IMG/VR virus record: IMGVR_UViG_2778261570_000020
Direction: 5' to 3' (one strand)
DNA: 6,008 nucleotides
DNA from: a virus
Taxonomy: Duplodnaviria > Heunggongvirae > Uroviricota > Caudoviricetes
The notes beneath the pieces are model-generated. The model was given only the letters and a program-made list of their open reading frames with translations, was not told where the DNA came from and made no database searches. The translations under genes and the position numbers were made by a program. This document shows positions 1,724 through 6,008 of this stretch, in pieces. Position 1 is the stretch's first letter, and each line of letters opens with the position of its first letter.

Positions 1724-2036
1724 CAGGCATTACAGCAGCCCTTCAGTGTGAGGGGCTGCGATAATGCAGGTGTTAGAGTGTGTGCAAATGATAATTGCTC
1801 CCATTTTCACGGGTCCTCCCGGTGGGGTACCCTTGCCACGGGGCGGGAGCGGCGCGGAAAAAGGCTAGTTTTTGCATTTTCATTCATCATCATCATCTTT
1901 TCAATGCATTGAATTTAAACGAATTTTATTTTTAGTATGTTAATTTTGCGTGTTTTTTGGTCAACATATAACGCACTTTATAACGCTTTTTGAAAAGGTG
2001 TTCGCAAGATGCATGTTTAAAACGTCAGGAGGGGAT
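1724..2036. other. Putative cos / packaging-initiation region upstream of the small terminase gene
   Basis: A 313-bp non-coding interval immediately 5' of a Nu1-like terS. It contains a G-rich tract CGGGGCGGGAGCGGCGCGG (1839-1857) that resembles but is not identical to the lambda cohesive end GGGCGGCGACCT, then an AT-rich stretch with CAT repeats (1881-1896) and a perfect 14-bp palindrome TTCAATGCATTGAA (1900-1913). The roughly 190-bp spacing from the G-rich tract to the terS ATG matches the lambda cosN-to-Nu1 layout. Confidence 0.35.
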
Positions 2037-2528
2037 ATGGATCGTGAGTTGAAAAATCTGATGCTGAACATTAACCAACTGGCGGCAATAGCAGGTATAT
2101 GTCGTCAGACTGCGGCGGCAAGACTGCAAAACATCCAGCCCGCCGGAGGACATGACAAGTTAAAGCTCTACCGGGTGGCAGATATTGTGTCGGCATTTCT
2201 GGCATTACCACCGCCGGTTGCAGAAGGCGAAATGGACGCGCATGAGCGCAAAGCCTGGTATCAGTCTGAACGTGAGCGTCTTAAGTTCGAACAGGAAACG
2301 GCACAACTCATTCCGGCCAGTGATGTCAGACGGGAGTTTGCCATCTGGGCAAAAGCGGTCGTGCAGGTGCTGGAGACATTACCGGATATTCTTGAACGTG
2401 ACTGCGGTCTGCAGCCTGCCGCTGTGAGCCGTGTTCAGTCCATTATTGATGATCTGCGCGATCAGATAGCCCTGCGGGTGACTGAAGCAGGTGCGGATGA
2501 TGAGGAGGAATTACAGCAGGAGGAGTAA
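2037..2528 (+). CDS. Terminase small subunit, Nu1-like (164 aa)
   Basis: ATG at 2037 with a strong AGGAGGGG RBS. The N-terminus MDRELKNLMLNINQLAAIAGICRQTAAARL...KLYRVADIVSAF parallels the lambda Nu1 helix-turn-helix region (KKQLADIFGASIRTIQNW...VLYDSAAVIKWY), with an acidic C-terminus. Stop TAA 2526-2528 overlaps the ATG of the large-subunit gene (TAATG). The longer track ORF from 1950 would run through the cos-like region and is not preferred. Confidence 0.75.
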   Translation: MDRELKNLMLNINQLAAIAGICRQTAAARLQNIQPAGGHDKLKLYRVADIVSAFLALPPPVAEGEMDAHERKAWYQSERERLKFEQETAQLIPASDVRREFAIWAKAVVQVLETLPDILERDCGLQPAAVSRVQSIIDDLRDQIALRVTEAGADDEEELQQEE

Positions 2529-3523
2529 TGCTGAATCAGGAAACCGCAAAGGCAGCACGAACCGATTCAGGTTATATCCTTCGCGCACCGAGACGAATGC
2601 GGGTTGCTGATGCCGTTGCTCAGTATATGCGGGTGCCTATGGGGGCAGGGAACTCAGTCCCGTGGGATCCGCTGGTGGCACCGTATGTTATTGAGCCTAT
2701 GAACTGCCTGGCCTCGCGTGAATACGACGCAGTGATATTTGTTGGCCCGGCACGAACCGGCAAGACTATCGGCCTGATTGACGGCTGGGTGATTTACAAC
2801 GTGATTTGCGATCCTGCTGATATGCTGATCATTCAGATGACGGAGGAAAAAGCCCGCGAACACTCCAAAAAACGACTCGCCAGAACGTTTCGCGTCAGCC
2901 CGGAAGTGGTCAGTCGCCTGAGTCCGAACAAAAATGACAACAACGTTTATGACAGAACATTCCTTGCCGGCAATTACCTGAAAATCGGCTGGCCGTCAGT
3001 CAATATCATGTCCTCATCAGATTATAAATGTGTGGCGCTGACGGATTATGACCGTTTTCCGGAAGATATTGATGGTGAGGGGGATGCCTTCTCTCTTGCT
3101 TCAAAACGAACCACCACATTTATGTCCAGCGGTATGACGCTGGTGGAAAGTTCACCCGGCAGGGATGTGAAAGATGTGAAATGGCGACGGACTTCACCGC
3201 ATGAGGCTCCGCCAACCACGGGGATCCTGTCACTCTATAACCGTGGCGATCGTCGTCGCTGGTACTGGCCCTGCCCACACTGTGGTGAGTATTTTCAGCC
3301 CTGTGGCGATGTGGTTGCTGGTTTTCGTGATATTGCCGATCCCGTGCTGGCAAGTGAGGCAGCTTATATTCAGTGCCCTTCCTGTTCCGGGCGAATTATG
3401 CCTGACCAGAAACGCGAGCTGAACGGACGTGGGGTCTGGTTGCGGGATGGTGAATCCATCAATGCAGACGGCAGTCGTTATGGTGAGCCCCGGCGCTCAC
3501 GTATTGCGTCATTCTGGATGTAG
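2528..3523 (+). CDS. Terminase large subunit, GpA-like, N-terminal half only (331 aa; C-terminally truncated, likely remnant/pseudogene)
   Basis: Walker A-type motif VGPARTGKT and cysteine motifs WPCPHCGEYFQPCGD and CPSCSG that parallel lambda gpA (ACPHCGEEQYLKFGD, then GIWTRDG versus GVWLRDG here). Lambda gpA is about 640 aa; this frame stops at ...RIASFWM where gpA continues (...VTFHIWTAYSPF...), and no continuation is visible in any frame downstream. Confidence 0.8.
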   Translation: MLNQETAKAARTDSGYILRAPRRMRVADAVAQYMRVPMGAGNSVPWDPLVAPYVIEPMNCLASREYDAVIFVGPARTGKTIGLIDGWVIYNVICDPADMLIIQMTEEKAREHSKKRLARTFRVSPEVVSRLSPNKNDNNVYDRTFLAGNYLKIGWPSVNIMSSSDYKCVALTDYDRFPEDIDGEGDAFSLASKRTTTFMSSGMTLVESSPGRDVKDVKWRRTSPHEAPPTTGILSLYNRGDRRRWYWPCPHCGEYFQPCGDVVAGFRDIADPVLASEAAYIQCPSCSGRIMPDQKRELNGRGVWLRDGESINADGSRYGEPRRSRIASFWM

Positions 3524-3609
3524 GGTACATTTCTTACCTGTTTTTATGTTCTGGTGTCGTTTTGTAGTCTTTTCAATGAGTTGTGATTTTTTGTGTTTCC
3601 TCTCTTTAC

Positions 3610-3639
3610 TTGATAATGAGTTAGTTTATCGCTTGTTAT
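3610..3639 (+). promoter_or_regulatory. Possible sigma70-like promoter and direct repeats upstream of the integrase gene
   Basis: TTGATA (3610-3615), 18 bp, TGTTAT (3634-3639) in an AT-rich spacer; TTATCG is directly repeated at 3626-3631 and 3636-3641. Purely motif-based. Confidence 0.2.
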
Positions 3640-3684
3640 CGACTTGAAAGGACTACATGACGGACTAAAAAATGAGGGCGATAG

Positions 3685-4923
3685 ATGCCGGTAAAGCCAT
3701 TAACCGTGACTGAAGTTAAGGGGATGAAACCACGTGAAAAGGACTATGCCGTTTATGATGGGTTCGGTTTATTGCTGAATGTGAGTAAAGCTGGTGGGAA
3801 AGTGTGGCGTTTCCGTTATAGCCATCCGATAACGAAGAAACGGCAGACATACACGATAGGGCGTTTTCCTGAATTCTCACTCGCGGAAGCACGGGAAATA
3901 CGTGATGAACTTCGGCGAATGATTGCACGTGGAGTTGATCCAGTGACAGAGAAGAAAAATCGTAAAATTGAGATGTCACTAAAAAATCTACAAACATTTG
4001 AAGCTGTTGCTAATGCATGGATCGCTTTTAAAAAGGGATCGGAATTGCGGAAACCTACGCTGTATAATATCGAATATGAAGTATACAAATATCTTGTTCC
4101 TTTCTTTGGTAAGTACAGCATAGAGAAAATTACAGCGCCAGTAGCTATTAATGCTCTGGATGCCGTATCCGATAAGAATGCGTTGCAAAAAAAATTAATA
4201 TCAAGATTAAATGAAATTATGAATTACGCTGTAAATTGTGGAGCATTGAAAACGAATCCATTACTTAAGATAAAAACTGCATTCACAGGAAAGAAAAATA
4301 AATCATTAGCTGCACTACCTGTTGAAAGATTGCCTGAATTTCTGAGTTGGTGGGATAGTGTGCCTCATAAGTATCAAATAGCTCACAATGCACTTTTATT
4401 CCAGATATTGACAATGGTCAGGCCAGGTGAGGCGATTAAAGCAGAGTGGTCCGAGATTGATTTTGATTCTGGCTTGTGGATTATCCCTGCGCATAAAATG
4501 AAATGCCATCGTGAACATGTTGTGCCTCTCTCATCACAGGCTATTAGAATCCTAAGAACAATGCAGAAAATAAAAAGAGGGCGTTATATATTTTTTTCCT
4601 CCAGAACAAAAGATGCTCCTATGGGAAAGAATACTATCAATACCCCAATTGCTGCCAGCAAGTTCAAAGGGATTGTAACGTTACACGGTTTTCGTTCGAT
4701 GTGGAGTACGCTTTTAAATGAGGAGGGTTTTAACCCTGATGTTATTGAGGCTGCATTAGCACATAAAAGTGGTGATAAAATAAGAGATATTTATAATAGA
4801 ACTACTTATTTAGAACAACGCAAAATTATGATGCAATGGGTAGGAGATTTTTTTGATGAGGCGAGAAAAGGGGTAATTAATAGATCCGGTGGTAAGAAAG
4901 GTTTGAGAATAGTAAATGGTTGA
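3685..4923 (+). CDS. int: Tyrosine site-specific integrase, P4-type (412 aa)
   Basis: N-terminal arm-binding-type domain (MPVKPLTVTEVKGMKPREKDYAVYDGFGLLLNVSKAGGKVWRFRYSHP..., characteristic of P4-like integrases). Catalytic motifs are present: RPGE box (MVRPGEAIKAEW), HGFRSMWST (H-x-x-R) and the C-terminal tyrosine region AHKSGDKIRDIYNRTTY. RBS GAGGG upstream of ATG 3685. Gene is AT-rich relative to the terminase block. Confidence 0.9.
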   Translation: MPVKPLTVTEVKGMKPREKDYAVYDGFGLLLNVSKAGGKVWRFRYSHPITKKRQTYTIGRFPEFSLAEAREIRDELRRMIARGVDPVTEKKNRKIEMSLKNLQTFEAVANAWIAFKKGSELRKPTLYNIEYEVYKYLVPFFGKYSIEKITAPVAINALDAVSDKNALQKKLISRLNEIMNYAVNCGALKTNPLLKIKTAFTGKKNKSLAALPVERLPEFLSWWDSVPHKYQIAHNALLFQILTMVRPGEAIKAEWSEIDFDSGLWIIPAHKMKCHREHVVPLSSQAIRILRTMQKIKRGRYIFFSSRTKDAPMGKNTINTPIAASKFKGIVTLHGFRSMWSTLLNEEGFNPDVIEAALAHKSGDKIRDIYNRTTYLEQRKIMMQWVGDFFDEARKGVINRSGGKKGLRIVNG

Positions 4924-4935
4924 GGAGTTCAGCAA

Positions 4936-5139
4936 ATGAATACCAATGAAGATATTTTATTTACTAAAGACGTAATGAAAATTTTGCGCTATGGGGCAAT
5001 GAGCGCATTCATCAATTTCTGGAAAGATGAAAATAATGGTTTTCCTCAACCGTTCAGAATTGGGCGGCGGCATACCTGGCACCGTAGAGATGTAGAGGCA
5101 TGGTTAGATAAACAACGAGAACAGGCCAATCCCCACTAA
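4936..5139 (+). CDS. alpA: AlpA-family (excisionase-like) DNA-binding regulator (67 aa)
   Basis: Small protein immediately 3' of the integrase (13-bp gap, RBS GAGGAG). The pattern ...KDVMKILRYGAMSAFINFWKDENNGFPQPFRIGRRHTWHRRDVEAWLDKQ matches the AlpA / prophage CP4-57 regulatory protein architecture (HTH, then a conserved FP-x-P-hydrophobic-x-G motif, then W-x3-[DE]-x2-[EA]-W). Confidence 0.7.
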   Translation: MNTNEDILFTKDVMKILRYGAMSAFINFWKDENNGFPQPFRIGRRHTWHRRDVEAWLDKQREQANPH

Positions 5140-5153
5140 TAATATCTTTCATA

Positions 5154-5178
5154 CCCCGCACGCAATGCGGGGTTTTTT
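5154..5178 (+). terminator. Rho-independent terminator
   Basis: CCCCGCA (5154-5160), loop CGCAA, TGCGGGG (5166-5172), then TTTTTT (5173-5178). Confidence 0.75.
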
Positions 5179-5197
5179 GTATGTGAGGTAAAAAACG

Positions 5198-5779
5198 ATG
5201 AATAAAAATATTGCCGTGACGGGCAAGGGGTACGCTCGTTCAGTAAAAAAATTCTGCGATATTCGTGATCTTGTCGTTCTGCGCTTTGATGGCGTGGATG
5301 TTCGTGTGGTGTATCTGAACGGCGATCCGTGGTTTGTTGCAAAGGATGTTTGTGAAGCTCTGGAAATAAGCAACTCACGCGATGCTCTAAAAGCTCTGGA
5401 TGTGGATGAGAAGAATACCGTCGCTTTAAGCTACGGTATTCGCGGAAATCCAAATCATAGCGTCGTTTCTGAATCTGGTTTTTACAAGCTGATCGCCAGA
5501 AGTCGCAAAGCTGTTACTCCTGGCACGTTCGCCCATCGTTTCAGTAATTGGGTATTCAGAAATGTGATACCGGGTATCAGAAAAACGGGGGCTTATGGTA
5601 TCCCGTGGGGCGCATTGCAGGATTTTTCCCGCCGCAAAGAGCAATACCGGATAAGTGCCAGCGAGAAGGGGAGGGCGCTACAGGCATGTAAGCGCAAAAA
5701 GCGTGAACTGGAGGAAGAAGAAAAAAGGCTGATACGTGAATATCAGCCTGAGTTTTACTTTGGTGAGCGTATTCAGTAA
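5198..5779 (+). CDS. Bro-N domain protein (phage antirepressor-like; 193 aa)
   Basis: RBS TGAGGT 8 nt upstream of ATG 5198. Conserved Bro-N signature blocks: VVLRFDGVDVRVVYLNGDPWFVAKDVCEAL...SRDALKALDVDEK, then SESGFYKLIARSRKA...FAHRFSNWVFRNVIPGIRKTGAYG. C-terminal 50 residues are highly charged (KRKKRELEEEEKRLIRE). Confidence 0.8.
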   Translation: MNKNIAVTGKGYARSVKKFCDIRDLVVLRFDGVDVRVVYLNGDPWFVAKDVCEALEISNSRDALKALDVDEKNTVALSYGIRGNPNHSVVSESGFYKLIARSRKAVTPGTFAHRFSNWVFRNVIPGIRKTGAYGIPWGALQDFSRRKEQYRISASEKGRALQACKRKKRELEEEEKRLIREYQPEFYFGERIQ

Positions 5780-5824
5780 CCGCGTACGGTGCTGATTATA
5801 CGGTACATCGTGTTAACCGGGAAG

Positions 5825-5939
5825 TTACCCACCAGCAAGGCAAAATCTTCTGCTAAAAAATGACATATGGCCAGTCGTCCGGAAAGCATGAAATTTTACA
5901 AAAATGGAAAATGAAGATTTTTATTGTGCTGGTGGGTAA
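5825..5939. repeat. Perfect 13-bp inverted repeat (TTACCCACCAGCA at 5825-5837 / TGCTGGTGGGTAA at 5927-5939) enclosing an 89-bp spacer
   Basis: Exact reverse-complement arms read directly from the sequence; the spacer contains the second copy of the direct repeat. Confidence 0.7.
5840..5897. repeat. Copy 2 of the ~58-bp imperfect direct repeat (perfect 20-bp core at 5876-5895)
   Basis: See copy 1 at 723-780; the core CGTCCGGAAAGCATGAAATT is identical in both. Confidence 0.7.
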
Positions 5940-5970
5940 AAACAAAAAGCGCCCCGTTGCCGGAGCGCCC
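5938..5970 (-). terminator. Possible intrinsic terminator for a minus-strand transcript entering from beyond the right edge
   Basis: On the minus strand GGGCGCUCCGG-CAAC-GGGGCGC forms an imperfect GC-rich hairpin (about 8 bp including one G-U) followed by UUUUUGUUUUU (plus-strand AAAAACAAAAA at 5938-5948). Confidence 0.35.
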
Positions 5971-6008
5971 TTGCGAACAATTAACCTACTGCGCAAAAAA
6001 TGAATCTG

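Follow-up and report, generated by a model that had tools for sequence, protein, structure and literature searches.

Helper-embedded phage-inducible chromosomal islands (HE-PICIs) are phage satellites that occupy late genes of their own helper prophage and point in the direction of those genes (Tommasini, Mageeney & Williams 2023, NAR Genom Bioinform 5:lqad036; PMC10111431). The founding member, Eco567.11capE (11capE) of Escherichia coli NRG857c, responds to mitomycin C with excision of the whole composite, replication, and a late, precise excision of the satellite (PMC10111431). The survey that followed retained integrases scoring at least 400 bits against the 11capE integrase and listed 14 integration sites, with all terminase sites belonging to the Terminase_1 family; a doubled motif, TGTATTGC, at about −81 and +132 from the centre of the island attachment site (attP), was called unique to HE-PICIs (PMC10111431). 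Here we analyze a 6,008-nucleotide stretch of tailed-phage DNA (IMG/VR record IMGVR_UViG_2778261570_000020; hereafter, the window), in which the large terminase subunit gene (terL) of a lambdoid prophage stops halfway and is followed by a P4-type integrase gene. We put at roughly 85% the probability that positions 3514–3526 are the left attachment site (attL) of a ~10.8-kb PICI-type satellite inserted, co-oriented, in terL of its own lambdoid helper prophage, that is, a helper-embedded PICI. The helper-embedded configuration has been known since 2023; what is new is the GpA-family terL site, the satellite-borne small terminase gene (terS), and the integrase lineage. The string 'GpA' is absent from those parts of the survey text and supplements that we consulted, which describe no GpA-terminase site, and we found no description of such a site for these satellites in the later literature.

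The interrupted terL gene (terL-N) spans positions 2528–3523 on the plus strand and encodes 331 residues ending in ...RIASFWM, with a TAG stop at 3521–3523. An earlier note on this DNA, made by a model from the letters and their open reading frames (ORFs), had placed the stop of a gpA-like frame at exactly these positions. The Pfam profile GpA_ATPase aligns over its whole length (2–247 of 247, E 1.7e-72), with no nuclease domain and nothing else substantial in the product. The uninterrupted terL of E. coli PSS-15 encodes 700 residues and contains both GpA_ATPase (res. 41–304) and GpA_nuclease (res. 326–644); its residues 1–331 are 99.4% identical to terL-N. Members of the GpA family combine an ATPase and a nuclease in ~640–700 residues, and terL-N, which has the ATPase only, is by its sequence a disrupted member. 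The cut falls at codon 331 of ~700, around position 6 of the GpA_nuclease profile and thus at the ATPase/nuclease boundary, which agrees with the note's estimate that about half of a gpA remains. GC content drops from ~0.55 before the stop to ~0.42 after it, and a 161-bp noncoding spacer of lower GC leads to an integrase gene starting at 3685 on the same strand, again as the note had described. The C-terminal half of terL was absent from every frame of the window (tblastn), and RefSeq annotates the equivalent genes in related loci as incomplete pseudogenes.

Comparison of attL with the right attachment site (attR) and the empty site (attB) of related loci places the junction to the nucleotide. 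The heptamer CTGGATG at 3514–3520 is probably the crossover segment, judging from the aligned sites; seven base pairs is a typical length for the overlap region of tyrosine recombinases. The attL sequence reads ...GCGTCATTCTGGATG-T-AGGGTACATTT and attR reads ...TTACTTCTTCCTGGATG-G-AGGGGCCGG, while the empty site reads TTTTGGATGGAAGG and, in PSS-15, lies inside the 700-residue terL as ...GCGTCATTTTGGATGGAAGGCCCC. Because attL and attR differ (T or G) directly after the core, crossover is placed within CTGGATG, and the T at 3521, which creates the TAG stop, is therefore supplied by the island attP. The extended core CTGGATG(T/G)AGGG is found at both island ends in eight loci, and at attL only in a ninth (L009). 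AttL itself was identified in nine E. coli loci, namely L001 and eight found through the exact integrase protein; attR was identified in L001 and in seven of those eight, where it lies 10.6–10.8 kb from attL. One of the island copies, L007, carries G rather than T after CTGGATG in its attL (9830–9902), leaving no TAG at the junction; its cut terL ORF continues for 21 island codons, to 352 residues, and the attL/attR repeat becomes a perfect CTGGATGGAGGGT.

The missing half of terL follows the island in the E. coli loci, 9.5–10.8 kb downstream behind the repeated CTGGATG, and starts at an ATG inside the core. In silico removal of the 9,502 bp that separate the cores of L001 gave a single 700-residue ORF, with no internal stop and 94.9% identity to the uninterrupted terL. 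The arrangement consists of a short att identity block, no replacement sequence, and a restorable ORF, with attR taken from the related loci, and 10 independent loci, Salmonella included, share the exact nucleotide of the break. The predicted junctions for the rejoined terL attB, the island attP, and the island right end are ...TTCTGGATGGAGGG..., ...TTCCTGGATGTAGGGTAC..., and ...TTCTTCCTGGATGGAGGG, respectively. The note had read the layout as a possible att junction next to the integrase, left by an integrative element in terL, and suggested looking for the lost 3' half, for a direct repeat near 3515–3530, and for uninterrupted relatives; all three exist in related E. coli loci. Its verdict that this terL leaves the prophage unable to package DNA applies only while the island is integrated; the disruption is reversible, and late precise excision has been shown for the analogous 11capE (PMC10111431). 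The features of the window discussed here are as follows.

1810–1895, plus strand: GC-rich block CGGGTCCTCCCGGTGGGG...ACGGGGCGGGAGCGGCGCGGAAAAAGGCT upstream of terS, a candidate cos, with a second copy inside the island in related loci.
2037–2528, plus strand: small terminase subunit TerS of the helper prophage, DUF1441 family; probable start ATG at 2037 after GGAGG.
2528–3523, plus strand: 5' half of the helper terL, GpA family, from ORF, Pfam, and comparison with the 700-residue homologue.
3514–3526, plus strand: att core, from comparison of attL, attR, and empty attB; AGGG(T) extends the attL/attR identity past 3521.
3524–3684, plus strand: noncoding integrase-side att arm, with doubled GGACTA, doubled TTATCG, and a weak promoter-like site.
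3685–4923, plus strand: P4-type tyrosine integrase, 412 residues, assigned from Pfam domains and catalytic residues.
4936–5139, plus strand: AlpA-like helix-turn-helix (HTH) protein, 67 residues (PHROG 66, E 9e-7; weak Pfam HTH_17 match, E 0.004, below the curated cutoff).
5153–5181, plus strand: strong terminator-like hairpin ACCCCGCACGCAATGCGGGGT (5153–5173) with T run after the int-alpA pair, from a consensus scan only.
5198–5779, plus strand: Bro-N protein, 193 residues (Pfam Bro-N, E 1.6e-18; PHROG 2593 'anti-repressor', E 6e-82), start of the Bro zone.
5780–6008, no strand: start of the variable region; homology to the sampled island variants stops at 5777, 5897, or 6001.

The gene content identifies the inserted element as a phage satellite that parasitizes its host phage, a more specific assignment than the generic integrative element of the earlier note. 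The AlpA-like gene directly follows int, as in the integration zone of HE-PICIs (PMC10111431). PHROG 66 is described as 'excisionase and transcriptional regulator', and from sequence the AlpA-like protein is probably an excisionase and transcriptional activator. A consensus scan revealed no terminator-like site between the terL-N stop and int. Only the first two zones of the island fall in the window; the remainder was read from complete copies (L003–L010). These encode, in order, the integrase, the 67-residue AlpA-like HTH protein, Bro-N, and small ORFs including DUF4222; a 605-residue D5_N/DUF5906/Pox_D5 primase-helicase, an 81-residue ORF, and a single-stranded DNA-binding protein (SSB); and, at the late end, a 637-residue ClpP-protease/major-capsid fusion, a terminator, a 161-residue DUF1441 protein, and a 93-residue ORF. 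These copies have the four-zone PICI organization of int and AlpA, Bro, primase-SSB, and late genes. Apart from a few small genes, the island is encoded on the strand of the late operon, with every core gene co-oriented. In the window, terS and terL-N sit upstream on the same strand as int, alpA, and Bro-N, and in related loci the island is followed by the terL nuclease half, portal, and capsid genes.

Tail, lysis, portal, and terL genes are absent from the complete island copies. Capsid-forming PICIs (cfPICIs) carry their own portal, head-tail connectors, and terL; here we found only the protease/capsid fusion, 57% identical to the capsid fusion of the helper, and a terS homologue. No sid, psu, or delta domains were detected among the Pfam-scanned and precomputed-Pfam island ORFs, which sets the element apart from P4-like satellites. 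Rfam models for C4 and isrK, RNAs reported in some PICI Bro zones, gave no match at the gathering threshold in the window or the L007 island. Because the island holds a copy of the cos-like block and terS and lacks tail, lysis, portal, and terL genes, we classify it as a cos-type PICI-like satellite of mEp460/cdtI-type lambdoid phages. In related elements (L099–L101 and L105), the Bro and accessory zones contain minus-strand TumE/HVO_A0114-like pairs and a second, faint 292-residue Phage_integrase-like ORF, possibly toxin-antitoxin or defence cargo.

The candidate packaging signals of helper and satellite share a common sequence. The GC-rich block (CGGGTCCTCCCGGTGGGG...ACGGGGCGGGAGCGGCGCGG) does not vary when three copies from helpers, two from islands, and the mEp460 right end are aligned, and its position suggests that it is probably the helper cos region; the mEp460 record is linearized at the terS start codon, so cohesive ends are unreadable from it. 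Window positions 1804–2326 are 82–84% identical to the island terS (DUF1441) gene together with the region just before it. This island-helper homology begins exactly at the GC-rich block (L007 19285–19370), after a terminator hairpin GGGCGGCGATAGCCGCC with a T run. The helper TerS matches Pfam DUF1441 (E 1e-38) and PHROG 141 'terminase small subunit' (E 2e-72), and the gene at this position is annotated as small terminase in deposited phages, including mEp460 and cdtI. The island TerS, the 161-residue DUF1441 protein, is 66–75% identical to the helper TerS. Comparison of the island gene (L007 19511–19996) with the helper gene (2037–2528) reveals a nearly identical N-terminal DNA-binding part, whereas the last ~12 residues are replaced (island ...RMVKNDVVNEVAKQA, helper ...EAGADDEEELQQEE). 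Because the C-terminus of lambda Nu1 contacts gpA, the changed tail of the island TerS could alter TerL engagement. Farther upstream, between the lysis region and cos (1119–1723), are two small ORFs of 81 and 100 residues (PHROGs 4280 and 1935, unknown function) that are conserved in helper-type prophages.

The integrase contains the domains Arm-DNA-bind_3 (E 3.9e-23), Phage_int_M (E 3.2e-10), and Phage_integrase (E 7.4e-21), with catalytic residues R246, H334–R337, and Y370/Y375, a P4-type architecture. It is 33% identical to the P4 integrase (208 bits) and only 25% identical to that of 11capE (85.5 bits), below the 400-bit survey cutoff, which places it outside the 11capE clade as sampled there. 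The identical integrase occurs in many E. coli contigs, always after a cut terL (8 places among the 24 contigs examined, ~96% identical to the window), and the allele is indexed in 972 blocks of the contig collection. Among species-representative genomes, the closest relatives reach at most 41% identity, and 56 of 60 relatives (34–41% identity) follow a tRNA or tmRNA gene of the same orientation at a distance of 170–420 bp, as is classical for the P4 type. The window integrase has no such tRNA/tmRNA 3'-end target, and its target is the protein-coding terL. Three relatives from Xenorhabdus and Morganella (L065, L066, and L072; 34–36% identity) also have no tRNA or tmRNA gene upstream.

A large protein database supplied graded relatives from Enterobacterales, ranging from 96% down to 45% identity. 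Eight of these (45–75%; Escherichia, Salmonella, Klebsiella, Raoultella, and Pantoea) lie 115–215 bp downstream of co-oriented late genes. The Salmonella relative at 75% uses the same terL codon and core (...SRIASFWM*, TTTCTGGATGTAGGGTACA), and the Klebsiella quasipneumoniae relative (55%) sits at the homologous position in gpA of a Nu1/gpA phage. Head genes lie upstream of others: an S78 protease-capsid fusion gene (Salmonella, 63%), a DUF2213 head gene (E. coli, 50%), a PF09950 major capsid gene cut at profile position 65 of 251 (Raoultella, 51%), and a complete portal_3 gene (Pantoea stewartii, 45%). The E. coli relative at 59% follows lambda-type E, FI, and FII genes and two further ORFs, in a lambda-type tail region, and a Pantoea relative (48%) follows a 343-residue ORF that succeeds a Terminase_2 (TerS) gene. 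Truncation of the target was seen for the terL cases and the PF09950 capsid case, and attR mapping was confined to terL members.

In neighbor-joining trees, the window integrase and these eight relatives form one group of nine (187 of 200 bootstraps), whose next neighbours are tRNA/tmRNA-targeting integrases, including that of P4. The 11capE integrase is the most divergent, lying outside all others with midpoint rooting and serving as outgroup in the bootstrapped tree; none of the nine clade members scores above ~90 bits against it. The trees are distance-based and contain a single representative of the published 11capE clade. On this evidence we lean, with some reserve, toward placing the window integrase in a second P4-type lineage, apart from the 11capE clade but with the same tropism for prophage late genes. 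If so, embedding in a helper arose on at least two occasions and reaches several non-lambda virion modules, which would contradict the picture of a single HE-PICI integrase clade.

The attP arms also resemble those of P4. A doubled GGACTA-N6-GGACTA (3650–3655 and 3662–3667) lies on the integrase side, at +133 and +145 from the crossover, with one GGACTA copy at −72 on the other side; a doubled TTATCG is located at ~3626 and ~3636. The weak promoter-like site for int (3644–3673) overlaps the doubled GGACTA. In the other attP arm, GGACTA is followed by TAGGGGGCATAA, which matches the P4 arm repeat TTGGGGGCATAA in 11 of 12 bases. Most clade members (L093–L107, 45–75% identity) have a GGACTA-like doubled motif 20–45 bp upstream of the int start; in L099, it is found ~55 bp upstream with a degenerate second half-site.

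We determined the frequency of the junction by megablast against 5,426 complete E. coli genomes. A 1-kb junction-spanning query (at least 80% coverage) detected the occupied junction in 81 genomes, ~1.5%, including O157:H7 and other Shiga toxin-producing E. coli strains, and an empty-site query at the same coverage matched ~1,047, so that ~7% of the genomes with this terL type are occupied. A 200-bp junction query found only 25 genomes, as diverged copies break the megablast alignment. The annotated locus of E. coli JNEC-KY179 (L001) reads, on the left, a DUF1441 gene and a terminase pseudogene 'missing C-terminus'; then integrase, HTH, BRO-N, two minus-strand genes, Icd-like, DUF4222, primase, and capsid fragments; and, after the island, 'terminase gpA endonuclease subunit, missing N-terminus', portal, protease/capsid fusion, and tail genes. 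This composite occupies the Qin locus, beside rspB. The helper region upstream of the L007 island contains two cspA-thermoregulator elements and an STnc490 small RNA (Rfam gathering threshold; 1898–2290, 2592–2715, and 5513–5898), which are typical of Qin-like prophages with cold-shock genes. K-12 ynfO, which lies beside nohA in Qin, was considered as an island relic and rejected, as it sits upstream of terS, on the phage side. In INPHARED, the partial matches to the island are to mEp460, cdtI, Tritos, and other helper-type phages, over the cos, terS, and capsid parts. The 16.5-kb entry LR881103.1 (Escherichia phage vB_KppS-Ant, 'induced prophage') has a primase gene 78% identical in DNA sequence to that of the island, and by size and content it looks like a satellite that was submitted as a phage.

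A working model for the life cycle can be drawn by analogy with 11capE and from the general biology of lambdoid phages. Upon SOS induction, the whole composite would excise and replicate with the island as a passenger. Late transcription antiterminated by Q would then run through terS and terL-N into int and alpA, and the satellite would excise late, restoring terL and delaying helper packaging. The restored helper terminase, perhaps guided by the satellite TerS, might cut satellite concatemers at the satellite cos, and the DNA would be packaged into capsids that include the satellite's own capsid protein. The 10.8-kb island has about one-quarter the length of an mEp460-type genome (44.5 kb), and both small capsids and multimer packaging are conceivable.

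Several points weigh against the interpretation as a helper-embedded satellite. Because the window stops within the island, attR and the 3' half of terL had to be taken from loci 94–96% identical to it. The predicted attP 28-mer had no match in IMG/VR and JGI metagenomes, a mostly environmental collection with low power for E. coli; a 20-mer with one N had seven matches there, all with unrelated flanks. Megablast of the whole island against INPHARED yielded partial matches only, with no deposited phage holding the island. Some copies are damaged: L001 has a fragmented capsid fusion (29282–30288), no terS copy, and an island of 9.5 kb; strain IMT16316 (NZ_CP023815.1) has an IS1 within the integrase; and in L009, a Peptidase_S74 tail-spike gene (20398–21239) takes the place of the terL 3' half after the island. 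Virions have not been recovered even for 11capE (PMC10111431), and we only infer cos function, late read-through, the role of the satellite TerS, and small-capsid formation.

Some of these observations would fit a genuine helper-embedded island that is now an immobile relic inside a defective prophage, an alternative that we consider unlikely yet serious. Many HE-PICI helpers look truncated (PMC10111431), decayed island copies exist, and no attP form was found in public collections. Yet the window contains intact ORFs for int, the AlpA-like gene, Bro-N, terS, and terL-N, the integrase is identical to the widespread allele described above, and the arm motifs are conserved. A much less probable alternative is a generic integrative island that merely lands in a phage gene and does not exploit the phage. 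Genes of the Bro zone and accessory region vary, and some relatives carry the defence- or toxin-antitoxin-like TumE and HVO_A0114 genes; against this, the island contains a cos-like block, terS, and a capsid/protease homologue, has no tail or lysis genes, and keeps its core genes co-oriented. These features are hallmarks of a satellite that hijacks packaging.

The deletion scar in a cryptic prophage that the earlier note had offered as its alternative, with an unrelated integrase beside the break by chance, is more improbable still. The window by itself shows only the left junction, and many E. coli prophages are degraded, L001 among them, with an IS3 in a tail gene and pseudogenes. A chance break, however, would hardly recur at one nucleotide in 10 loci of E. 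coli and Salmonella, with the core repeated at the far island end before the missing half and an intact ORF upon rejoining, nor does the integrase occur in any other context among the contigs examined. A naturally ~330-residue terminase, or a frameshift with the rest of terL in another frame, has ORF length alone in its favour and can practically be dismissed given the 700-residue homologues with a nuclease, the lack of the C-terminal half in any frame, and the RefSeq pseudogenes.

The helper-embedded satellite interpretation has consequences for how such loci are read. Helper-embedded satellites are a recently recognized wiring of a virus parasite into a viral late operon, in which assembly waits for the satellite to exit, and here the switch sits in the packaging motor itself (TerL). 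A different, P4-closer integrase lineage doing the same points to selection for late-gene targeting rather than to a quirk of a single clade, and surveys based on integrase similarity undercount such elements. Annotation pipelines report the junction as a terminase pseudogene and an orphan integrase; therefore, completeness tools will score such prophages as defective, although they may be conditionally functional.

Compared with 11capE, the element is of a known kind, because the gene order is the same and the primase/81-residue ORF/SSB module is 94% identical in DNA sequence over 2.3 kb. The two share all four zones (int and AlpA-like, Bro, primase/SSB, and captured late genes beside a cos copy), as well as a short att identity block and no replacement sequence. 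The differences lie in the target, here a GpA terL cut at the ATPase/nuclease boundary as opposed to the Terminase_1 sites of the survey; in the arm motif, here GGACTA-N6-GGACTA with no TGTATTGC, which is present in 11capE (L012); and in the terS gene, which 11capE lacks. The geometry of the arms is alike, with +133/+145 and −72 here against the published +132 and −81.

With P4, the element shares the integrase architecture, with an N-terminal Arm-DNA-bind_3 domain, and the doubled arm repeats spaced by 12 bp, which in P4 lie ~134 bp (integrase side) and ~75 bp (other side) from the core. P4, however, enters the 3' end of the leuX tRNA gene and restores it, whereas this island cuts a phage protein gene and leaves it unrestored; it also has no sid, psu, or delta, and its helper is lambdoid, not P2-like. 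Classical PICIs such as EcCICFT073 (Fillol-Salom et al. 2018, 2019) have in common int, alpA, primase, cos, a lambdoid helper, and redirected packaging, but occupy chromosomal sites and meet the helper only in trans, while the present island resides inside it. EcCICFT073 uses Rpp and has no terS, in contrast to the terS homologue and capsid/protease fusion found here. Finally, the rebuilding of a split gene by timed, precise excision is shared with skin in sigK and SPbeta in spsM of Bacillus subtilis and with phi10403S in comK of Listeria; in the present case, the split gene belongs to the helper phage, and it is presumably the satellite, not the cell, that benefits from the timing.

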